Shown: positions 9,874 through 21,928, counted from the stretch's first letter. The stretch: 36,261 nucleotides of DNA from Eubacteriales bacterium (GCA_045636665.1 JAZTXY010000087.1:1-36261); one strand, 5' to 3'. Numbers and translations: made by a program. The notes: generated by a model not told the origin, from the letters alone.

Positions 9874-11760
9874 ATGAATATGAAAAAATCTATTGCGCTG
9901 ATTCTTGTTTTTCTGCTTGTCTTTGCGGCACTTCCTCTTTCGGCTTCGGCGGCAAACGAAACCGAACCGAACGAAAACTATCAAACTGCAACAGTTATCG
10001 CTCTTAATGCCAATATTTACGGCGCGCTTGACAACAGCACCGATGAAGATTGGTATAAGTTTACACTCACCGAAAAGGGTTCGGTGCAAATTTCATTTAA
10101 ACACGAGAATATTAACGAGAGCAATATTCGTTGGGAGATGTATTTATACAGCTCTGATGGCAGCACTCATATCGACGGAGGTAACGGTTTTTGGTCTATC
10201 CCCGGCAACAAGGACGTTACAACCGGTGAAATAGGTCTTGATGCAGGTACCTATTACATAAGAATCAAGCATTGGAACTCGAACTGGGTTGTTTCTTCGA
10301 CCTATACGGTAAGAGCTTCTTTTACGGCTTCGGCGAAATACGAGACAGAAATTAACAATTCTCCTTCAACCGCTGACGAGATTGATAACAATGTTTTCGT
10401 ATATGGCTCAATCAGTTCAGAGGGCGACGAGGATTGGTATAAGTTTACTCTCACCGAAAAAGGATATATCAGCATTTGGTTTGCTCATCCCAAGGCTGAA
10501 GACAATAATACCCGTTGGGAAGTGTACCTTTATCGCGAAGATGCATCGACAAGCGTTGACGGCGGAAAATGCTATTGGGCAATCCCCGGTGACCAAAACG
10601 TGCAAACCGGCGAAATAGGTGTAGAGGCAGGCACATATTACGTAAAAGTTAAGGCGTGGAACGATTCGTGGGTAGTTGATTCTACCTATACGCTCGACGT
10701 ATATTTCACCGCTTCCGACAAATATGAGAGCGAGCAAAACAATACTTATCAAAAAGCCGACACGCTTTCGCTTTTTGGCGAAGCAAACGGCTCGATAAGC
10801 ACGTCCACCGACGTTGACTGGTATAAGGTAACCGTGCCCCAAAATGGCAAATTCCGTCTTTCGTTTACTCATCCGATAGGAATCGAATCTAATTCGCGTT
10901 GGACCGTATACCTTTACCGTAACGACGCATACAGCCAAATTCAAAAGTGGAATATTCCCGAAACTCTCAATCTTAACAATGAAAGCATTGACCTATCTGC
11001 CGGTACCTATTTTATCAAGGTTACCGCGTGGAACGATTCGTGGGTAGTCGATACCACTTATACACTTTCGGCAACTCTCGACCACACCTGCGACGGCGAG
11101 TGGGAAATTGTTGACGAACCGACTTGCGAGAAAACGGGCAGCAAGGAAAAATATTGCGATATTTGCAAAAAGCTTATCGCAAAAGAAACGATTCCGCAGA
11201 ATGAACACTTTTGTGAGGATTGGACGATCGTTACCGAATCGGATTGCAAAAATGAAGGCTTGAAGACCGGTATTTGTGAGTTTTGTGATAAGCCGTTTGA
11301 GAAAAAAATCCCCACAACCGATCACAGCCACAAAACCGTTGTAACTCCTCCTACCTGCACCGAGAAGGGATATACCACCTATACTTGTGAGTGCGGAGAT
11401 ACTTATGTGTCCGATTATATCGTTGAAGACGGACATAAGGACGGCGAATGGGTAGTCGTTAACGAGCCCGAAATCGGAAAACCCGGCAAACGAGAAAAGC
11501 GTTGTTCGGTATGCAACGAGCTTCTTGCACAAGAGGATATCGACGCGCTTGCTCCGACGTATGTAATCGGTGACGTAAATGGCAACGGCGATGTAGAAAA
11601 ATACGACTATATTGCCGTTAAACGCGCGGTTATGGGAACTCTTTCTCTTGATGAAACCCAACAAAAGGCCGCTGACGTAAATGGCGCGAGCGGTGTTGAA
11701 AAGTATGACTATATTTTAATCAAGCGCCATGTTATGGGTACTTTTACAATAGGCAAATAA
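9874..11760 (+). CDS. Secreted non-catalytic repeat protein: 3 PPC/collagen-binding-like domains, Cys/His-rich repeats, C-terminal dockerin
   Basis: Signal peptide ending ASA-A. Three roughly 125-aa repeats (E.E.NN…G…D.DWYKF/VT…AGTYY). PTC..G repeats. Duplicated GDVNGNG..EKYDY / ADVNGASG.EKYDY dockerin loops. Confidence 0.8.
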   Translation: MNMKKSIALILVFLLVFAALPLSASAANETEPNENYQTATVIALNANIYGALDNSTDEDWYKFTLTEKGSVQISFKHENINESNIRWEMYLYSSDGSTHIDGGNGFWSIPGNKDVTTGEIGLDAGTYYIRIKHWNSNWVVSSTYTVRASFTASAKYETEINNSPSTADEIDNNVFVYGSISSEGDEDWYKFTLTEKGYISIWFAHPKAEDNNTRWEVYLYREDASTSVDGGKCYWAIPGDQNVQTGEIGVEAGTYYVKVKAWNDSWVVDSTYTLDVYFTASDKYESEQNNTYQKADTLSLFGEANGSISTSTDVDWYKVTVPQNGKFRLSFTHPIGIESNSRWTVYLYRNDAYSQIQKWNIPETLNLNNESIDLSAGTYFIKVTAWNDSWVVDTTYTLSATLDHTCDGEWEIVDEPTCEKTGSKEKYCDICKKLIAKETIPQNEHFCEDWTIVTESDCKNEGLKTGICEFCDKPFEKKIPTTDHSHKTVVTPPTCTEKGYTTYTCECGDTYVSDYIVEDGHKDGEWVVVNEPEIGKPGKREKRCSVCNELLAQEDIDALAPTYVIGDVNGNGDVEKYDYIAVKRAVMGTLSLDETQQKAADVNGASGVEKYDYILIKRHVMGTFTIGK

Positions 11761-13247: not shown

Positions 13248-15458
13248 TTATACAAACGTATAGTGTTTCTTTCCGAGCAACACACAACCCGATACGCCAA
13301 ACACTTTGTTTTCGGGATGCTTTTTATAATCGATATACGGCGTGCCGCAATGAGGACAATTAAAGGAATTATAATAACGGAAGCATTTCTCTTCGGTTTC
13401 ATAAGTCCAGGTATCCTTGTCGATATTGTATGCTTGAATTTCGCAACAATCCAAACCGTCATCAGAATAGGCTATGTCGCTTTGCGCCATATAGAAAGCA
13501 TATCCTCGGAAGCAGAAGGATTTGCCGCAATCGGGGCAAATACCGATTAAACGAATATTGGAGGGAGTGGTTAAGCCGTGATATTTCAGGCCTTTCATAG
13601 GAAGATCCTGTCCTCTGTTCATATCATAACGCAGCTTGCCTGCTTCGCCTCCACAAGCAAGAAAATGTCCTTCAAAGCGGTAACCGATATCATTCAGTGT
13701 TATCTTACGTTCTTCGGGCGTATCCGAAATAAAACCGTCGATTTGTGCAACAGGTACTGCAGGATTTCCTTGAATGCTAAGTCGGACAGAAATCAAAAAG
13801 TATTTTCCGGTAAAGTCTTCATCGTTCTCTGTTTGCAATACGTATTCCCTTGTTTTTATCCCGTCCTCATAAAGATAAATAGTGGGTTCCTTTTCTTTCA
13901 GCGGGATAACACCGATAAATTCATACATCGGGCTTTGAGGATGGCTTCTTAAGTACGCCACCAAAGCAGCGGAGTCCACATAAATGGCGTTTCCGTTTTC
14001 AACGGTGACAGGCTTGCGTGGTTGAATGGGCTTTGCGAGCTTTAGCTGGTCTGGCGTGCCGAAACTACGGCGAATAAGGGTTTCTATATATGCCGTTGCA
14101 ATTTTTTTGTTTTCTAATGGTAAAATCAATTTTATGATTTGGGTCTGGTTGTAGAAAAATACATTTACGAAACCATGCAAAGATTTACTTTTTCCGAGAA
14201 TAATTGCACAGCTACGTTCTCTTGTCCAGTCCGAGGAATCCTTGCCCGTTTTTTTGCCCTCCAAATAGTTTTGGGTGATATTTGTAAAGTTATCAAAGCC
14301 TCCAACCGATAGTTTAACGGTTGATTTTTCAAGGTCTTGCGTGAATAGGTAGTCAACCGAATTGCGAATATACTCCCACCCGTATCCGCTTGTAAGGCGG
14401 AAAGTGTATACAAACTTGTCGCCGGCATGAATAACCGACATATCTGTGATATAGCTTGTATCATCCAGCATCTTATCGGGAAGGTTTATGTTATATGTGG
14501 GCGTTCCTTTGACAAAGAAGCCTGTTCGCATGAATATAGAGCTAGGAAGGAAAACCATACCAACGCCATAACCTATTATGGAGGGTATAAAAAGAGGTTC
14601 AAACTTAAAAATAGCGGATGCGAAAATCATAACCATACATACTATGGTCAAAACAGAACCCGCCTTGCAAAGAGTATTAAAGAAAACCGAGTGTGACAGC
14701 TTGTTCTGAACAGATGACGCAAGGGAGGTTATAGAGACGTTTTTGTGACCATATATCAAGAGTCCGAGGCCGATGGCACCAAGCACACCGTTAACCACAA
14801 ATCCTCTTGCATCAATAGTATTCTTAATAAGACCGACAGTAATAGATAAAAGGACAAAGGCTAAAAGAATAGATCCGCCGATAATCTTTCCTTTATCAAG
14901 AGTGGAAGATGCTTCGGGGTAAAGCTTTAAAAATTCGCACTTGGCTTGGGCTGTCTTTCCCTTGATTATTTTTGGGTTTACGGGGGAAATATAATTGTTT
15001 AATAGTGTTCGAAGCTCGAGTTCTTCGATCATGATATAGGCCTTTTTTCCGTTTTTTAAACGAATAGTGTACTCTCCAAGATGACCGCCTATACTGTATA
15101 TCCAAGCGAACTGATCGTAAGCTACTACTGAACCGGTTCTTTTGCAGAAAAAAGCCTTTTTTCCACAGTATATTTTAGCTTTCACAAATGTAGGTGTGTT
15201 CAAATCGATATCATCTAAATAGTGCTCATTGCCGCTTTTTTTCAAGATTTTAAAAGTGTGTCCAAACCAAAAAAACTTAACAAAATATGTTATAAAAAAG
15301 GCTATCGACACCCAAAAGCTTAAAAGCGCAAAGGGGGCACCGAGGTCAGGTGCGTGCGAAAAAGGAAAGATGAATAGTAAAGAACAAAAAAGCGAAATGA
15401 TTGCTATGGACAAAAAGACACGACCGATAATCTTTTGCTTTTGAGCATACTTTTGCAT
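13248..15458 (-). CDS. Hypothetical multi-domain membrane protein (about 6 TM helices in pairs; C-terminal Cys-rich soluble domain)
   Basis: 736-aa ORF from ATG 15458 with GGAG RBS. Paired hydrophobic helices in the N-terminal half. CPDCG…CPHCG motifs near the C-terminus. Family not recognised. Confidence 0.75.
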   Translation of the reverse strand: MQKYAQKQKIIGRVFLSIAIISLFCSLLFIFPFSHAPDLGAPFALLSFWVSIAFFITYFVKFFWFGHTFKILKKSGNEHYLDDIDLNTPTFVKAKIYCGKKAFFCKRTGSVVAYDQFAWIYSIGGHLGEYTIRLKNGKKAYIMIEELELRTLLNNYISPVNPKIIKGKTAQAKCEFLKLYPEASSTLDKGKIIGGSILLAFVLLSITVGLIKNTIDARGFVVNGVLGAIGLGLLIYGHKNVSITSLASSVQNKLSHSVFFNTLCKAGSVLTIVCMVMIFASAIFKFEPLFIPSIIGYGVGMVFLPSSIFMRTGFFVKGTPTYNINLPDKMLDDTSYITDMSVIHAGDKFVYTFRLTSGYGWEYIRNSVDYLFTQDLEKSTVKLSVGGFDNFTNITQNYLEGKKTGKDSSDWTRERSCAIILGKSKSLHGFVNVFFYNQTQIIKLILPLENKKIATAYIETLIRRSFGTPDQLKLAKPIQPRKPVTVENGNAIYVDSAALVAYLRSHPQSPMYEFIGVIPLKEKEPTIYLYEDGIKTREYVLQTENDEDFTGKYFLISVRLSIQGNPAVPVAQIDGFISDTPEERKITLNDIGYRFEGHFLACGGEAGKLRYDMNRGQDLPMKGLKYHGLTTPSNIRLIGICPDCGKSFCFRGYAFYMAQSDIAYSDDGLDCCEIQAYNIDKDTWTYETEEKCFRYYNSFNCPHCGTPYIDYKKHPENKVFGVSGCVLLGKKHYTFV

Positions 15459-15507
15459 GAAAAACTCCAAAATTTCAAAACTGTCATTTATAACTTGTTA
15501 TAGTCTT

Positions 15508-16156: not shown

Positions 16157-16187
16157 TTGACTTGATATTATCAATGTGATATTATCA
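16157..16187 (+). promoter_or_regulatory. NAD operon promoter with overlapping putative NrtR operator
   Basis: TTGACT (16157-16162), 17 bp, TATTAT (16180-16185) with TGn. Two tandem palindromes TGATATTATCA (16163-16173, 16177-16187) overlap the spacer and the -10. Confidence 0.7.
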
Positions 16188-16214: not shown

Positions 16215-17054
16215 ATGGGCTTTGAAAAGGAACAACTCACAGAAGAAAAGCTTTTCTTTTCATCATACAGCATGAACGATTACGAAAGGCCGTCGATAGC
16301 GACCGATATTGCGGTGTTTTCGATGTTTGACGAAGAGTCGGACAGTCACCGAAAGGATGCCGAATCGAAGCTTCACGTTTTGCTTATAAAACGCGGCGAG
16401 CATCCGTTTAAAAACAAATGGGCGTTGCCGGGCGGTTTTTTGAAAGCCGATGAAACCGTTGAAGAATGCGCTTTGCGAGAAATCAAGGAAGAAACGAATC
16501 TTGAACCTATTTCTTTATTGCCTATCGGTGTGTTCAGCAAGCCCGACCGCGATCCGCGCGGAAGGATTGTTTCAAACGCATTTGCATCGGTCGTAAATGC
16601 CGAAACCGTTAAAATATCGGGCGGCGGCGATGCAATAATGGCGCAATGGTTTGAGGTGGATTTCAAGAGCTTGGGCGAAAACCGATTTTCAATCGATTTT
16701 ATCAACGGCGACGAAAAAATTCGGGTTGAGCTTTTAGAAACCGAGCGTAAATTCGGTAAAAGCCAATTTGAGATACAAAAGGACACCGGCCTTGCCTTTG
16801 ACCATTCGAAAATAATCGCCACCGCGCTTTTGGTTATGCGAAGCGAAGCGGAACGGTTTGATATAACCTTCGATTTCTTGCCCGAAAAGTTCACGCTTGC
16901 CGCATTGCAAAAAGTGCAGGAAACCTTGTTGAATGATACGCTGTTAACGGCAAACTTCCGAAGAAAAACGGCAAGTCTTGTTGAAGAAACCGACGAATTT
17001 ACCGAGGGCGCAGGGCACAGACCTGCGAGATTATTTAAAAGAAAACCAATATAG
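16215..17054 (+). CDS. nrtR: NrtR-family regulator (Nudix domain + C-terminal wHTH)
   Basis: Motifs LLIKR..HPF…WALPGGF, Nudix box GGF…ET…ALRE..EET, RDPRGR, LAFDH..I, FLPEKFTL..LQ, ANFRRK, G.GHRPARLF. Confidence 0.9.
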   Translation: MGFEKEQLTEEKLFFSSYSMNDYERPSIATDIAVFSMFDEESDSHRKDAESKLHVLLIKRGEHPFKNKWALPGGFLKADETVEECALREIKEETNLEPISLLPIGVFSKPDRDPRGRIVSNAFASVVNAETVKISGGGDAIMAQWFEVDFKSLGENRFSIDFINGDEKIRVELLETERKFGKSQFEIQKDTGLAFDHSKIIATALLVMRSEAERFDITFDFLPEKFTLAALQKVQETLLNDTLLTANFRRKTASLVEETDEFTEGAGHRPARLFKRKPI

Positions 17055-17078
17055 ACTTATTCAAAGGAGAAAAATATT

Positions 17079-17609
17079 ATGAAAAAGCTTTTAATTGTTG
17101 TAGACGTACAAAATGATTTTGTCGACGGCGCGCTCGGTTCAAATGAAGCGGTCGCTATCGTGGATAACGTTGTGAACAAAATCAAAAGCTTCGACGGCGA
17201 CGTTATCGTAACCTACGATACCCACTTTGAAAACTATATGGAAACCCAAGAGGGCAAAAATCTTCCCGTACCGCACTGCATAAAAGGTACTGACGGATGG
17301 CAGCTTAACGAAAAGGTTCAGGCGGCGCTTGACGGAAGGGAATATGCGTCGATTGAAAAGCCGACCTTCGGCTCGACCGAGTTACCCGAGTATATCAAGG
17401 CGAATTTCAACCCTGCCGAGCTTGAAATCGAGCTTATCGGACTTTGCACCGATATTTGCGTTGTGTCCAACGCGCTTTTGTTGAAAGCCAATTTCCTTGA
17501 AGCGAAGGTAAGCGTCGATGCATCCTGCTGTGCAGGTGTGACGGTTGACAGCCATAAAGCCGCGCTTACAACGATGAAGATGTGTCAGGTTAACGTGATT
17601 GGAGAATAA
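17079..17609 (+). CDS. pncA: Nicotinamidase (isochorismatase/cysteine hydrolase family)
   Basis: Motifs VVDVQNDFVDG.LG, TYDTH, PHC..GT.GW, EKPTFGS, GLCTDICV; located in the NAD operon. Confidence 0.85.
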   Translation: MKKLLIVVDVQNDFVDGALGSNEAVAIVDNVVNKIKSFDGDVIVTYDTHFENYMETQEGKNLPVPHCIKGTDGWQLNEKVQAALDGREYASIEKPTFGSTELPEYIKANFNPAELEIELIGLCTDICVVSNALLLKANFLEAKVSVDASCCAGVTVDSHKAALTTMKMCQVNVIGE

Positions 17610-17611
17610 TT

Positions 17612-18409
17612 ATGATAAAGCTTAACGGAAACGAAGTTGCGCTCGGAACCTTTCCCGACGGAACGATGCTTATAAAGCAAAAAGCACCCGAAGCGGAGGA
17701 AATAACTCTTTCGTGGTTTTATGAAAACGACAGAGAATTGGTTGCGATTATATTTCTCGCGAACCATTTAAAAGCGCAGGGCAAGGAAAACATACGTCTT
17801 TATATGCCCTATATCCCCAACGCAAGACAAGACCGAGTTAAAAGCGGTGAGGACGTATTTACCCTTAAATATTTCGCAAACGTCATTAACGGCTTGGGCT
17901 TCAAAACCGTAACGGTGCTTGACCCCCATTCGAGCGTGAGCGAGGCGTTGATTGACAACATAACGATACAAAAGCCTAAAAAATATATCGAGGACGCTAT
18001 ACGCAAAATCGAAGAAATCGAGGGCGAAACGCCTTCGCTGTTCTATCCCGACGAGGGCTCGGGCAAGCGTTATTCGGGTATGATACCGCTTCCTTATGCG
18101 TTTGGGATCAAAAAACGCGATTGGAAGAGCGGAACAATTTTGGGACTTGACGTTGCGGGTGACGTTGAGAATATCAAGGGCAAAAACATCCTTATCGTTG
18201 ACGATATATGCTCGCGCGGCGGAACCTTTTATTTCGCGGCGAAGCATCTTAAGGAATTGGGCGCTCGTAAAATTTATTTGTATATTACTCATTGCGAAAA
18301 CACCGTTTTCGAGGGTGAGGTGCTTACAAGCGGTCTTATTGAAAAGGTATTTACGACCGACAGCATACTTACAAAAGATCACGAAAGAATCGAAAAATTT
18401 GCACTTTGA
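17612..18409 (+). CDS. Short divergent ribose-phosphate pyrophosphokinase-like protein (NAMPT-associated; possible ADP-ribose pyrophosphokinase)
   Basis: Motifs FPDG, MPYIPNARQDR, LDPHS, PDEG..KRY, KKRD, LIVDDICSRGGTF, YITH. At 265 aa it is shorter than housekeeping Prs. Confidence 0.88.
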   Translation: MIKLNGNEVALGTFPDGTMLIKQKAPEAEEITLSWFYENDRELVAIIFLANHLKAQGKENIRLYMPYIPNARQDRVKSGEDVFTLKYFANVINGLGFKTVTVLDPHSSVSEALIDNITIQKPKKYIEDAIRKIEEIEGETPSLFYPDEGSGKRYSGMIPLPYAFGIKKRDWKSGTILGLDVAGDVENIKGKNILIVDDICSRGGTFYFAAKHLKELGARKIYLYITHCENTVFEGEVLTSGLIEKVFTTDSILTKDHERIEKFAL

Positions 18410-18419
18410 GGAGAACGTT

Positions 18420-19889
18420 ATGAGCAAAAATATAAATCCGATGCTGCTGTGCGATTTTTATAAAACCGTTCACAGCGATATGATAAATCCGAAAATGACA
18501 AAATCGATGTCTTATTACACTCCTCGGATGAGCCGTGTAAACCGCTGGGACAAGGTCGTTATGTTCGGTGTGCAGATGTTTTGCAAAACCTGGCTTATCG
18601 ATTATTTCAATGAAAACTTTTTCGAACTTTCCGAGGATGAGGTTGTCGGCGAATACACACGCGTTTTGGATGCGACTCTCGGAAAAGGCATTTACGGAAC
18701 CGAAAAGATAAGAAAGCTTCATAGATTAGGCTATCTTCCCATCGAAATAATTGCGCTTCCCGAGGGAACGATGGTTCCCGTTCACGTTCCGATGTTCGGT
18801 ATTACCAACACTCACGACGATTTCGCGTGGTTGCCTCAAGCACTTGAAAGCCTTATTTCTGCCGAAATGTGGTATCCGCAAATAACCGCAACGGTCGGAA
18901 AGACCTATCGAGATATCGTAAATAAATATTATGCCGAAACGGTCGAGGATGACGTTCCCCGCGCAAGAGCTTTAGGCGCATTCGATTTCCGCGGCGATAT
19001 GTGCGTTGATGCGGCGCTTATGGCGGGTGCGGGCTGGTGCTTATCCTTCCTGCTCACCGCAACCGTACCTGCAATTCCTTATCTTGAAAATATGTTCAAC
19101 TGCGACTGCACGAAAGAGCCGGTTGCGTTCGGTTCGGTTTCGACCGAGCATTTCGTAATGTGCTCGAATTATGCGGTTGACGGCGATGAAATAACCTTCC
19201 TTCGTAAAATGCTGACCGAGCTTTATCCCAACACAAGCTTTTCCTGCGTTCTCGACAGCTATGATTATTGGAACGTTATTGACAATATTCTTCCTCAGCT
19301 TCACGATGAAATTATGGCGCACAACGGATGTATGCTTATGAGAGGCGATTCGGGCGATTGCGTTGAGGTCGTTACCAAAACCGTGTTTAAGCTTTGGGAG
19401 CAGTTTGGCGGAACGGTCAACTCCAAGGGATATAAGGTTCTCGATCCGCACGTAAAGGCAATTTACGGCGACAGCATAACCGTTCAACGCTGTGAAGAAA
19501 TTTACGAAATCCTCAAAAATGCGGGCTTTGCGTGTTCTAACGTCGCATTGGGTGTCGGCTCGTTCTCGATGCACTGTATCGAGGAGGATAATATCTTGAA
19601 GCCCTTCACCCGTGACACCTTCAGCTCCTGCATCAAGGCGTGCTATGCAGAGGTCGACGGCAAATGCTATCCCGTATTCAAAAATCCTAAAGACGGCGGA
19701 TTCAAAAAGAGCCAAAAGGGACTTTGCTACGTTTACGAGGAAGACGGCGTTTTGAAGTATAAAGACGGATACACTTCTGCAGATATTCCCGACGGAAACC
19801 TTTTGGAAACCGTATTTAAGGACGGCAAGATGATAAAGGACTATACCTTAAACGAAATCAGACAGCGTCTGAACGGAGGTAATTTTTAA
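18420..19889 (+). CDS. NAMPT/NadV-fold phosphoribosyltransferase (nicotinamide or nicotinate substrate)
   Basis: Motifs LLCDFYK..H, F.FRG, STEH (catalytic His), DSYD, RGDSGD, IYGDSIT, GVGS, TRDT, KKSQKG. True start is ATG 18420 with GAGGAG RBS; the ORF-track start at 18096 overlaps the prs-like gene. Confidence 0.92.
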   Translation: MSKNINPMLLCDFYKTVHSDMINPKMTKSMSYYTPRMSRVNRWDKVVMFGVQMFCKTWLIDYFNENFFELSEDEVVGEYTRVLDATLGKGIYGTEKIRKLHRLGYLPIEIIALPEGTMVPVHVPMFGITNTHDDFAWLPQALESLISAEMWYPQITATVGKTYRDIVNKYYAETVEDDVPRARALGAFDFRGDMCVDAALMAGAGWCLSFLLTATVPAIPYLENMFNCDCTKEPVAFGSVSTEHFVMCSNYAVDGDEITFLRKMLTELYPNTSFSCVLDSYDYWNVIDNILPQLHDEIMAHNGCMLMRGDSGDCVEVVTKTVFKLWEQFGGTVNSKGYKVLDPHVKAIYGDSITVQRCEEIYEILKNAGFACSNVALGVGSFSMHCIEEDNILKPFTRDTFSSCIKACYAEVDGKCYPVFKNPKDGGFKKSQKGLCYVYEEDGVLKYKDGYTSADIPDGNLLETVFKDGKMIKDYTLNEIRQRLNGGNF

Positions 19890-20632
19890 TGTTTAACGCA
19901 GACAAGGTAAAAAACGAATGTGTTCAATGGATTCGTGATTTTTTCGAGGCTAACGGAAAGGGTTGCAATGCCGTATTGGGCATTTCGGGAGGCAAGGACA
20001 GCTCGGTTGCCGCGGCGCTTTGCGTTGAAGCTTTGGGAAAGGATCGCGTTATCGGTGTGCTTATGCCCCAAGGGGAACAGCACGATATCGATAAAGCGTT
20101 TATGCTCGTTAATCATTTGGGGATAAAGCATTACGTAATAAACATAAAATCCGCCGTCGATGCAATTCTCGAAAATCTTCCGAACGAGCTTGAAATTACC
20201 GCGCAGTCTAAACAAAACCTTCCTCCGCGAATCAGAATGTCGACGCTTTATGCCGTTTCTCAAAGCTGTAACGGCAGGGTTTGTAACACCTGCAATCTTT
20301 CCGAGGATTGGGTGGGATATTCGACTCGCTACGGCGATTCTGTCGGCGATTTCAGCCCGATGTCCAAGCTTACGGTTGACGAGGTTAAGAAAATCGGGTA
20401 TGCTCTCGATCTTCCCAAGGAATTGGTCGACAAGGTGCCGATTGACGGACTTTGCGGAAAGAGCGATGAGGACAATCTTGGCTTTACCTATGCCGAGCTC
20501 GATAAATACATCAGAACCGGCGAAATCGATGATGAAAACAAAAAGGCAATTATCGACCGAAAGCACAATGCAAATCTGTTCAAGCTTCAGCTTATGCCTA
20601 TTTTCGATCCCAAAATCGAAACGAAAGCATAA
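19889..20632 (+). CDS. nadE: NH3-dependent NAD(+) synthetase (single domain)
   Basis: Motifs LGISGGKDS, N…RIRM..LY, NTCNLSE..VGYSTRYGD, P.DGL…SDEDNLG.TY. No glutaminase domain. TAATG overlap with the upstream gene. Confidence 0.95.
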   Translation: MFNADKVKNECVQWIRDFFEANGKGCNAVLGISGGKDSSVAAALCVEALGKDRVIGVLMPQGEQHDIDKAFMLVNHLGIKHYVINIKSAVDAILENLPNELEITAQSKQNLPPRIRMSTLYAVSQSCNGRVCNTCNLSEDWVGYSTRYGDSVGDFSPMSKLTVDEVKKIGYALDLPKELVDKVPIDGLCGKSDEDNLGFTYAELDKYIRTGEIDDENKKAIIDRKHNANLFKLQLMPIFDPKIETKA

Positions 20633-20695: not shown

Positions 20696-21928
20696 TTATT
20701 CCCAAGGAATAACGCCTTCAAGGGCGATTTTGTCGGCTGCCTTTTGAAGCTCCTTTGCTTCCGCTTCGGGGAGGTTGAACAATATATCAAGCTCGGTTGC
20801 GCTCTTTCCGAACAACGTCGCATAGAAGGTGCAAACCGCGAGATAACCGCCGCGAGTGTTGGTGTGCGCGTTATCCGAGCCCCAAAGGTTGCCGCCGCAA
20901 TTCTTGATTGCGTAAGCAAAAGCTCTGTTTACGTAAACGCAGGATGCATCGTATTCTTCAGCCGCAGGGGTGAAGTGATCGTCGAACACCTTGCATTGTT
21001 CGAAGTTCTTATATCCTGCGAGGTCCTTTCCGTAAGGAGGTCTTACATAGAAATAGAACTTCGCACCGCTTTCGTGAACCGCTTTTCCGATCTTTTCGAT
21101 TGCCTTTAAGCTCTTTGCACGTTCGGCTTCTGTCACTATCGAGTTGCCGTTTTCTTGGATAAATACCGCATCATAGCCCTTTGCGATTTCTGCAAACAGC
21201 GAAGCGTCTGCCGCGTGCTGTTCAAGAGTGCGTCCGCCGGGAACGATTTGCTTTTGAGTGATGGTGATACCCTTGCTAAAGCAAACCTTTGCAAGATTTG
21301 CAGGGATATCGTTAACGTAGGTTGCGCTGTTACCTATAAAGAGAAGCTTATAGGAAGACTTTTCGGGGAGCTTTGCATCCGAAAGAGAGGGGGACGCAAT
21401 TTCTGTCTTTGCCACGATTAAACTACCGTCCTTTGCGCTGTCGGTGATTTTGTAATAATGCTCTTTGCCCTTTTCATCGGCAAACGAAATGCCGTTTACA
21501 GCTATAATGTCGGCAAACTCGATATCCGCAATGAGCGGTTTTTGAGCGGTTACCTCGGTCGTCTCGAAAAGAATATCGCCAATAACCACTTCGTCGGTAA
21601 GCTCGTCGTTTATCGAGAAAATTTTGACGTTGTAAATGTTCGATTTCGGTGTAATCAAAACTGTCATAACGTTGTATTCTTTTTTCGATTCGTATCTTTG
21701 ACAGTTTTTAATTTTGCCGATATCTTCTTCATTAACAAATTCGGCTGTGAAAAGACCGTCAATCTCTGCTTTCGGATTTTCTTGCTGTTCGGGCTCACTC
21801 GATTCCTCGGGAGTTGAAGATGTTGCAACGTCTTCGTTACTGCACGCCATAAACAGCGGCAGGCACAAAGCCATGCACAAAACGAAACAAAGAAAGGCTT
21901 TAATACGGGTAGATTTTACTGTTTCCAT
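20696..21928 (-). CDS. Lipoprotein with C-terminal SGNH/GDSL-like hydrolase domain
   Basis: Lipobox LFMA-C; block I LLFIGNSATY; GG.TL..H; V.IQE; D..H (SDNAH). Confidence 0.78.
   Translation of the reverse strand: METVKSTRIKAFLCFVLCMALCLPLFMACSNEDVATSSTPEESSEPEQQENPKAEIDGLFTAEFVNEEDIGKIKNCQRYESKKEYNVMTVLITPKSNIYNVKIFSINDELTDEVVIGDILFETTEVTAQKPLIADIEFADIIAVNGISFADEKGKEHYYKITDSAKDGSLIVAKTEIASPSLSDAKLPEKSSYKLLFIGNSATYVNDIPANLAKVCFSKGITITQKQIVPGGRTLEQHAADASLFAEIAKGYDAVFIQENGNSIVTEAERAKSLKAIEKIGKAVHESGAKFYFYVRPPYGKDLAGYKNFEQCKVFDDHFTPAAEEYDASCVYVNRAFAYAIKNCGGNLWGSDNAHTNTRGGYLAVCTFYATLFGKSATELDILFNLPEAEAKELQKAADKIALEGVIPWE

Follow-up and report, generated by a model that had tools for sequence, protein, structure and literature searches.

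A chromosomal nrtR-linked operon as a candidate nicotinate-type variant of the NARP1 pathway

How could a cell rebuild nicotinamide adenine dinucleotide (NAD) with a set of salvage genes that includes no adenylyltransferase? The question is raised by a stretch of 36,261 nt from a gut-dwelling Eubacteriales bacterium (GCA_045636665.1, JAZTXY010000087.1:1-36261; hereafter, the window), in which five open reading frames (ORFs) lie head to tail on the + strand between positions 16215 and 20632. They encode, in order, the regulator NrtR, a PncA-like nicotinamidase, a short Prs-like protein, a NAMPT-like transferase and a NadE of the NH3-dependent type, and are separated by gaps of 24, 2, 10 and -1 bases. 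A preliminary description of the window had reported a tight operon of these five genes without an adenylyltransferase. The ORFs lie exactly where it placed them, and no gene of the PF01467 adenylyltransferase type was found within the operon, a NadD-like gene being located on a separate contig of the genome.

We propose, with a probability of about 0.6, that the operon is a chromosomal, NrtR-repressed and nicotinate-type form of NARP1, the pathway of the phage enzymes Adps and Namat, and that it rebuilds NAD via nicotinic acid adenine dinucleotide (NaAD) without an adenylyltransferase. NAD consumers would release ADP-ribose and nicotinamide, and ADP-ribose, as expected from the NrtR family, would release NrtR from two operators overlapping the promoter. 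PncA, judging from its family and its catalytic residues, would convert nicotinamide to nicotinate and NH3, whilst the Adps-like enzyme, by homology to the assayed enzyme of phage SPbetaL1, would convert ADP-ribose and ATP to ADP-ribose pyrophosphate (ADPR-PP). The Namat-like enzyme, which lacks the amide-reading Asp, would then join nicotinate and ADPR-PP directly to form NaAD, an undescribed reaction, and NadE would amidate NaAD to NAD, the canonical activity of its family. The chemistry of Adps and Namat, the ADP-ribose response of NrtR and the function of the Asp residue are carried over by analogy from published relatives; the nicotinate substrate, the ADPR-PP donor in this subclade, and NaAD as both product and NadE substrate are what we infer from sequence. 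Reuse by NadE of the NH3 derived from PncA is pure conjecture, and the benefits that can be imagined for a deamidated route, such as a pull by the ATP-driven NadE or hosts that rapidly deamidate nicotinamide, are guesses only.

The Prs-like and NAMPT-like pair

The Prs-like protein scored 109.5 bits against the TIGR01251 model, slightly below the cut-off of 113, and its top match among 50,697 phage records was the Adps of phage SPbetaL1 (44.5% identity across 97% of the length). It scored 176 bits against SPbetaL1 Adps, compared with 72 against Escherichia coli Prs and 34 against the Prs of its own genome (contig C125). In a tree of 128 Prs-family sequences, every protein from the operons and the phage modules clustered with phage Adps. 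The node uniting these proteins with the Adps of Firmicute phages had a support of 0.899, and the clostridial housekeeping Prs proteins were separate (1.0); the deepest node, which adds the Adps of phages HY02 and ICP1, was weak (0.573). The phylogeny that the preliminary description had called for therefore puts the protein inside the Adps clade, and not with housekeeping Prs.

The donor site of the protein was compared with that of ICP1 Adps, in which a remodelled pyrophosphate (PP) loop, Cys215-Ser220, and a Phe lid, Phe221/Phe223, are reported to bind the donor ATP (PMC13586617). The ICP1 sequence that we used is the protein of that structural paper, with agreement at 21 of 21 named residues. 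The PP loop reads DDICSRGGTFYF in the window protein, DDICDGAASFKF in ICP1 Adps and DDMIDTGGTLCK in E. coli Prs. The window protein has the ICP1 features DDIC..GGTFYF (Cys215, Phe221 and Phe223) and the hairpin K-x-R-D-x-x-S/T-G-x-I, and both E. coli Prs and the own-genome Prs deviate at these donor-site positions. Phe221 was found in 81 of the 111 locus proteins.

The start of the transferase gene was set at the ATG at 18420, within a longest ORF from 18096, because GAGGAG precedes this codon and the N-termini of homologues match. The protein scored 414.9 bits against NF006629 (cut-off 405). Amongst solved structures, it was closest to 9W5X and 9W5W (371 bits), confirmed to be structures of SPbetaL1 Namat, followed by 9KE8, the NadV of Haemophilus ducreyi (308 bits), and human NAMPT (~150 bits). 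By blastp, identity was 42.1% to SPbetaL1 Namat (367 bits) and 28% to KVP40-type NARP2 NadV (186 bits). An AlphaFold2 model (28 sequences) reached a predicted local distance difference test score of 94.6, and its best fold match was again 9W5X (template modelling score 0.92, root-mean-square deviation 1.9), with 9KE8 second. The predicted structure confirms a Namat-like fold, and is silent on nicotinate versus nicotinamide and on ADPR-PP versus phosphoribosyl pyrophosphate (PRPP).

Residues D12, Y14, F188, R191, H244, R308 and D310 of the transferase align to D13, Y15, F189, R192, H245, R306 and D308 of Namat, so that the catalytic His and the residues of the NMN site are retained. Nicotinamide is reported to lie between Phe189 and Tyr15' of SPbetaL1 Namat, hydrogen-bonded by Asp215, in a pocket lined by Ala242 (PMC12774641). 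The position of Asp215 is occupied by Ala in the window enzyme (Ala214) and that of Ala242 by Ser (Ser241), and both substitutions are present in all 80 of its 80 relatives on genome contigs. Where classical NadV has the motif GTDT with the nicotinamide-specifying Asp, the window reads LTAT. The equivalent residue of human NAMPT, Asp219, is reported to define substrate specificity (PMC7096376), and a table of variants lists D219A as a loss of activity and D219S as a switch in substrate affinity (PMC4919578). Because Asp215 is replaced by Ala, we did not class the window enzyme as a nicotinamide transferase. The residues that hold ribose, phosphate and adenine (Arg40', Phe392, Thr398', Arg399' and Asp400') are retained, and the clamp-loop stacking residue of the Arg40 type is likewise Arg here, as it is in 76 of 77 relatives with a residue aligned at this position. 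Adps and Namat reportedly do not assemble into a stable complex (PMC12774641).

A transferase tree was built from the 150 best representatives drawn from 1.84 billion proteins, nine phage proteins and the window enzyme; 151 sequences covering at least 80% of 471 columns were kept, and nine others were dropped as fragments. Two pairs of motifs split cleanly, GTDT with A-T/S-E-H versus x-T/S-A/S-T with S-T-E-H. All 46 sequences with Ala, Ser or Val at position 215 formed one exclusive clade (support 0.998) nested in the Namat radiation, in which 37 members with a long clamp insert made up a subclade (0.975). The three NARP2 NadV proteins were set apart by a branch length of 1.03. The NAMPT-like protein thus falls inside the Namat radiation and apart from NARP2 NadV, as the preliminary description had expected.

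Other features of the transferase family were seen along the way. Three Asp-type Namat representatives have an insertion of ~280 residues exactly within the GS...TRD clamp motif that looks intein-like, starting with C and ending with HN before T. Many other representatives have lengths of 550-1100 amino acids (aa) and matched in two to four stretches. A fusion of PncA with Namat was sought in six long representatives and rejected: the additional N-terminal parts either matched an HNH endonuclease or had no Pfam hit, and insertions were seen in the long forms.

Linkage to pncA and nadE in bacteria and phages

Transferase loci were typed by the residues aligned to Namat positions 215 and 242, and neighbours were sought within ~6 kb by tblastn (E ≤1e-4, at least 80 aligned residues) with the five operon proteins and a macro-domain protein. 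Identical loci were counted once, except in the metagenome Asp/Glu set, which was not deduplicated (Table 1).

Table 1. Genes found beside transferase loci of the two pocket types
Pocket type and source	Loci	adps	pncA	nadE	nrtR	Macro domain
Ala/Ser, bacterial	79	75	74	69	59	0
Ala/Ser, IMG/VR	38	35	34	34	1	11
Ala/Ser, phage record MT835544	1	1	1	1	0	1
Asp/Glu, IMG/VR	136	130	0	0	0	18
Asp/Glu, phage records	6	6	0	0	0	0
Asp/Glu, metagenome	80	60	0	0	28	4

A pncA gene adjoins 109 of the 118 distinct Ala/Ser-type loci, bacterial and viral taken together. By contrast, neither pncA nor nadE was detected by tblastn within ~6 kb of any of the 222 Asp/Glu-type loci, although adps adjoins 196 of them. 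Amongst the listed Ala/Ser-type loci that lack one gene, 14 of 21 end near a contig edge, and the Ruminococcus albus group is an exception in retaining pncA with nadE elsewhere. The association survives divergence to 43-73% identity, reordering (nadE precedes pncA in MT835544), gene insertions and passage between phage and bacteria. The survey of gene order suggested in the preliminary description found pncA, Prs-like and NAMPT-like genes, with or without a following nadE, in the same order in 80 related bacterial loci and 47 viral contigs, a recurrence that places the order far beyond chance. Median conservation was 82% for the transferase, 58% for PncA and 60% for the Adps-like protein. The predictions of that description that lend themselves to computation all came out as proposed, judging by the clades, the lost Asp, its association with pncA and nadE, and the operator.

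The nine basal Ala/Ser members with a short clamp are a separate case, as no genomic context was located for them: scans of IMG/VR and metagenomes with an alignment of basal members gave only Asp/Glu-type loci, and the phage collection held nothing nearer to them than ~50% identity. We also observed that, of 74 metagenome adps-namat loci of the Asp type (for example on contigs of 300-990 kb), 28 have an nrtR relative within 6 kb, without pncA or nadE. Classical environmental nrtR-prs-nadV operons may therefore be nicotinamide-type, chromosomal NARP1 under the control of ADP-ribose.

The four enzymes PncA, Adps-like, transferase and NadE also form a module in large gut phages. In MT835544 and eight sampled IMG/VR contigs, the module is surrounded by phage-typical genes, all on one strand, which include RNA ligase, polynucleotide kinase, thymidylate synthase, the reverse transcriptase of a diversity-generating retroelement (DGR), HNH endonucleases, integrase and phrog_1735 (a large phage family). 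Searches across the full length of five viral records found no PF01467 adenylyltransferase in the three with a completeness of 90% or more (153, 173 and 103 kb, the 103-kb record being classed as a provirus), and a weak, 32-bit PF01467 match in one that is 61% complete. Since the phage carries four enzymes and no NadD or NadM, the module fits a route without adenylyl transfer, with use of the host NadD being possible.

A macro-domain gene was found in or near the module only on the viral side of the Ala/Ser loci (Table 1). It matches Adpp, a macro-domain ADPR-1''-phosphate phosphatase reported as a NARP1 accessory (bioRxiv 10.64898/2026.01.28.702374), which ties the module to ADP-ribose. This gene (phrog_335, 'phosphatase') stands between the transferase gene and nadE in several phage modules (for example L090:13561-14181), and it directly follows the transferase gene in seven loci, a layout similar to that of the published NARP1-AP. 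DGR parts (reverse transcriptase and Avd) and MazF-like genes were also seen a few kb from the NAD module (loci L104:9394-11413, L130:194-1228 and L090:209-874).

Regulation, partner enzymes and genomic setting

The nrtR product matches the Pfam families NUDIX (64.8 bits) and NrtR_WHD (60.3 bits), corresponding to a Nudix domain fused to a C-terminal winged helix, and scored 107 bits against NCBIfam NF050029, under the cut-off of 400. Two exact copies of TGATATTATCA were observed, with 0.61 matches expected in the whole window at up to one mismatch, and both overlap a predicted sigma-70-like promoter. In 35 of 75 related loci, a loose operator-like motif was found no more than 200 bases ahead of the operon's first gene (the raw count of 37 included two edge artefacts); the window background was 0.17 per kb. 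The NrtR control anticipated in the preliminary description is consistent with these tandem candidate operators. The catalytic consensus of Nudix enzymes is GX5EX7REUXEEXGU, and the box of the window NrtR (residues ~72-96, gene 16215-17054), GFLKADETVEECALREIKEETNL, is close to it with the Glu residues retained. The window NrtR might still hydrolyse ADP-ribose, in competition with the Adps-like enzyme. A TG-N7-CA core is reported for NrtR sites, and ADP-ribose is reported to release the NrtR proteins of Shewanella and Synechocystis from DNA (PMC2330246).

The PncA-like protein matches PF00857 at 77.8 bits, by which Pfam assigns only the broad isochorismatase family, and scored 32 bits against the NCBIfam nicotinamidase model NF008623 (cut-off 174). 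Its closest solved relatives are the nicotinamidases/pyrazinamidases 3PL1 and 1ILW. Residues D9, D47-x-H49, H66 and the Cys of GLCTDICV align with the catalytic and metal residues of Mycobacterium tuberculosis PncA (3PL1), the Lys falling in a poorly aligned stretch. The window NadE consists of the synthetase domain only, and scored 164.6 bits against TIGR00552 (cut-off 63.65); its top solved relative is 2E18, an archaeal-type NH3-dependent NAD synthetase.

The source genome is a 1.8-Mb assembly in 139 contigs, 80% complete. It has a NadD-like gene at C101:3822-4478; no other PF04095 member or PncB, no NadA and no second clear NadE were found in it. If these absences are real, the operon would be the organism's only entry for niacin. 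Five isolate or near-complete carriers of the operon (Konateibacter massiliensis, Lachnospiraceae HCP1S3_C2, two Ruminococcus albus strains and 'Bacterium 0.1xD8-71') each have a second, PncB-like PF04095 gene, and the three of these genes that were scanned are bona fide PncB (687-695 bits against NF006695, cut-off 469). PF01467 matches of NadD size, without typing against NadM or NadR, were found in all five, and four have a long, glutamine-type NadE. The operon enzymes of these isolates are therefore additions to a complete Preiss-Handler pathway, and the transferase is unlikely to be just another enzyme forming nicotinic acid mononucleotide (NaMN), as PncB is already present. The preliminary description had called the pathway self-contained: this holds only in part, as the genome has NadD and the five carriers have PncB-like genes.

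The transferase was found in none of 40 relatives at E 1e-50 (24 other species of the genus and 16 genomes from other families of the order), yet copies 91-96% identical occur in assemblies labelled as several different families, which argues for horizontal spread. The operon thus looks accessory and horizontally mobile, and the bacterial copy would be an accessory version of the phage module that was put under NrtR control. We consider it slightly better than an even chance that the Ala/Ser-215 subclade comprises nicotinate ADP-ribose transferases and that, with PncA, Adps and NadE, they make up a four-enzyme 'deamidated NARP1', free of adenylyltransferase, that moves between large phages and Clostridia of the gut and has been domesticated under NrtR in bacteria for the inducible repair of NAD cleaved by NADases, sirtuins or toxins.

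Table 2 lists the features of the operon. Its flanks in the window are housekeeping genes (SbcCD-like, RecG, Dus, RuvX, tRNA-Pro, PBP1 and DnaE), and phage genes were not found amongst them, so that the location is chromosomal, as had been claimed at the outset. The operon is bracketed by two ORFs on the - strand, at 13248-15470 (740 aa) and 20696-21928 (410 aa), which have no Pfam match at E 1e-5. A dockerin-bearing protein is encoded at 9874-11760 of the window, and the organism therefore probably has a cellulosome. No sequencing run contains more than 0.15 of the window's words. Contigs of a relative (~92-95% alike) in one metatranscriptome run cover parts of all five genes and span the junctions pncA/Prs-like, Prs-like/transferase and transferase/nadE; they were given no weight, as contigs assembled from RNA libraries are no proof that the genes are transcribed or share one transcript.

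Table 2. Features of the operon, in window coordinates
Feature	Position	Strand	Basis
Sigma-70-like promoter, TTGACT-17-TATTAT, TG before the -10 element	16157..16185	+	10/12 matches, consensus match only
Tandem near-palindromes TGATATTATCA, candidate NrtR operators with TG-N7-CA core	16163..16187 (16163-16173, 16177-16187)	+	Two exact copies
nrtR, putative Nudix-related ADP-ribose-responsive repressor, 279 aa	16215..17054	+	NUDIX and NrtR_WHD
pncA-like, putative nicotinamidase of the isochorismatase family, 176 aa	17079..17609	+	PF00857, solved relatives
Adps-like, putative ADP-ribose diphosphokinase, short Prs-like, 265 aa	17612..18409	+	Homology to SPbetaL1 Adps
Namat-like transferase with altered pyridine pocket, 489 aa	18420..19889	+	Alignment, trees, model
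nadE, NH3-dependent NAD synthetase without glutaminase domain, 247 aa	19889..20632	+	TIGR00552

Competing readings and known systems

Several points weigh against a nicotinate-type NARP1. The nicotinate substrate and the NaAD product are deduced from the linkage of the genes and two residues of the pocket, and the covariation is in essence one retained event, since all Ala/Ser-type proteins belong to one lineage. Furthermore, pncA and nadE were sought with two tblastn queries each within 6 kb, a search that may have overlooked strongly diverged copies next to loci of the Asp type. The published Namat clamp motif is GSX-phi-X-phi-X-phi-TRD; the window clamp, GSFSMHCIEEDNILKPFTRD, departs from it, keeping Phe at position 3 and TRD and losing the Tyr396 position. 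The clamp of the relatives is interrupted by a conserved nine-residue insert (GSFS[MF][HQ]C[IV]EE..L[KL]PFTRD), modelled by AlphaFold2 as a confident beta-hairpin, and since this hairpin replaces the Tyr396 stretch, the preference for ADPR-PP could have changed. SPbetaL1 Namat itself also accepts PRPP in vitro. If the absences in the source genome are real, the enzyme may need to make NaMN from PRPP as well; a dual donor role is kept open because of this in vitro activity and because the transferase is the sole PF04095 member found there. Lastly, the nicotinamide mononucleotide (NMN) synthetase of Francisella, 3FIU, is the second-closest solved relative of the window NadE.

It is possible, though unlikely, that the operon boosts the Preiss-Handler pathway, with the transferase making NaMN from nicotinate and PRPP, the Prs-like enzyme supplying PRPP, and a NadD encoded elsewhere or by the host converting NaMN to NaAD for NadE; mixed use of PRPP and ADPR-PP would belong to the same account. 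The pocket change is compatible with it, indicating nicotinate and being uninformative on the ribosyl donor, as are the PRPP activity of Namat and the remodelled clamp. The genome has the NadD that would be needed, PncB and NadA were not found in it at 80% completeness, and PncB is patchy in the genus, being found in 10 of 25 other genomes. However, the Prs-like protein clusters with assayed Adps and has the donor-site residues of Adps, and the transferase retains the adenine-stacking Arg40, Phe392 and TRD. The three near-complete phage records have no adenylyltransferase, the macro domain often found in phage modules is of the ADPR-1P-phosphatase type, and a second NaMN-forming enzyme would be redundant in the isolates that have both the operon and PncB.

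We regard as improbable an ordinary NARP1, in which the pair would make NAD from ADP-ribose and nicotinamide and in which pncA and nadE were merely co-gathered into an NrtR regulon. NrtR regulons are indeed reported often to include pncA, pncB, nadD and nadE (PMC2330246, Table 1), and the bacterial NARP1 of Paenibacillus foliorum is reported to be active with nicotinamide (PMC12774641); but the amide-binding Asp is Ala in all 80 relatives, a change that abolishes the activity of human NAMPT, and pncA and nadE accompany the pair in phages that lack nrtR too. Their absence beside the Asp-type loci also extends to the 28 of these that nrtR adjoins. It is still less probable that the altered pocket accommodates some other pyridine or base, with the PncA-like enzyme acting on a different amide. 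Pocket identity is inferential, and the assignment of the PncA-like protein to a broad family, with its low score against the nicotinamidase model, would permit this, whereas the aligned metal and catalytic residues (the Lys apart) speak for a nicotinamidase, and nicotinate is suggested by the constant presence of NadE, an enzyme known to act on nicotinate nucleotides. Most improbable of all is a route in which NadE converts NaMN to NMN, as in Francisella, followed by adenylylation. The short, single-domain form of the window NadE and its kinship to 3FIU would suit such a route, but 2E18 is closer, and a related archaeal short NadE is NaAD-specific without NMN synthetase activity (PMC3376133). 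In addition, the Francisella route is accompanied by NadM in place of NadD, in contrast to the NadD-like gene here and the NadD-sized PF01467 matches of the five isolates, and it requires an NMN adenylyltransferase, which is not present in the phage modules.

The nicotinate-type NARP1 that we favour appears to be new in its nicotinate part only. NARP1 itself and occasional non-prophage bacterial copies of it, with a hint of ADP-ribose-dependent regulation, are already in print (bioRxiv 10.1101/2024.02.11.579819), as are the active P. foliorum system (PMC12774641) and prs-nadV operons under NrtR in which the second prs was left unexplained (PMC2330246). In the literature searched, the NARP1, Namat, NARP3, RyDEP, aRES and Aravind papers included, we found nothing that connects nicotinamidase, nicotinate, NaAD or NadE with Namat or ADPR-PP; supplementary tables may contain such loci, one being Table S1 of the NARP1 preprint, a list of bacterial NARP1 loci.

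If the proposal is true, the operon adds a new reaction, ADPR-PP + nicotinate -> NaAD, and with it a second biosynthetic origin of NaAD besides NadD. NARP1, a phage counter-defence, would have a nicotinate form, widespread in phages of the gut and rumen with hosts that salvage niacin via nicotinate, and the same module would act in bacterial chromosomes under an ADP-ribose sensor. This would answer both the question of Osterman et al. about the purpose of chromosomal NARP1 and that of Rodionov et al. (2008) about the second prs beside nadV. A simple annotation rule would also follow, by which GTDT / A-T-E-H identifies enzymes of the nicotinamide type, and x-T-[AS]-T / S-T-E-H those of the nicotinate type, and it could sort genes now named nicotinate or nicotinamide phosphoribosyltransferase.

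Amongst known systems, the window most resembles NARP1 as described in phages SPbetaL1, Bas63, Fado and ICP1 and in P. foliorum, which likewise has an adjacent Prs-like and NAMPT-like pair and no adenylyltransferase (bioRxiv 10.1101/2024.02.11.579819; PMC12774641; PMC13586617). The two window proteins share with it the levels of identity to the SPbetaL1 enzymes given above, the clades, the fold, the Adps donor site and Arg40/Phe392/TRD, and the Prs-like gene ends 10 bases upstream of the transferase gene, with adps adjoining in 75 of 79 bacterial and 35 of 38 viral distinct loci. The window enzyme differs in having Ala for Asp215, Ser for Ala242, the nine-residue clamp hairpin and no Tyr396, and the Ala/Ser type differs in its linkage to pncA and mostly to nadE, in NrtR control in bacteria, and in a predicted product that is NaAD and not NAD. 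NARP1-AP, the form with Adpp (bioRxiv 10.64898/2026.01.28.702374), has the macro-domain gene in common with 11 of 38 viral loci and MT835544; the window and the 79 distinct bacterial loci are without it, and the published NARP1-AP is described as using nicotinamide.

The NrtR-regulated prs-nadV operons of Shewanella, Acinetobacter, Chromobacterium and Cytophaga (Rodionov et al. 2008, PMC2330246), compared here by their description only, resemble the window in having nrtR beside a second prs and a NAMPT-family gene, an ADP-ribose-responsive repressor and a TG-N7-CA operator. They differ, as described, in having no pncA or nadE between the genes, and were read as converting PRPP and nicotinamide to NMN. 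NARP2 or NadV-NMNAT systems (KVP40; H. ducreyi NadV, 9KE8) share the NAMPT fold, the NF006629 match and, through 9KE8, the second-best solved relative of the window enzyme; unlike it, NARP2 NadV has an NMN adenylyltransferase as partner, an outgroup position in the tree, a GTDT / A-x-EH pocket, and a GGGLLQ-type loop where the window has GSF. Finally, the proposed route is like the Preiss-Handler pathway of PncA, PncB, NadD and NadE in that deamidation comes first, amidation by NadE comes last and NaAD is penultimate. It is unlike that pathway in that Adps and the Namat-like enzyme would replace PncB and NadD, the AMP and ribose coming from recycled ADP-ribose rather than from PRPP and ATP.

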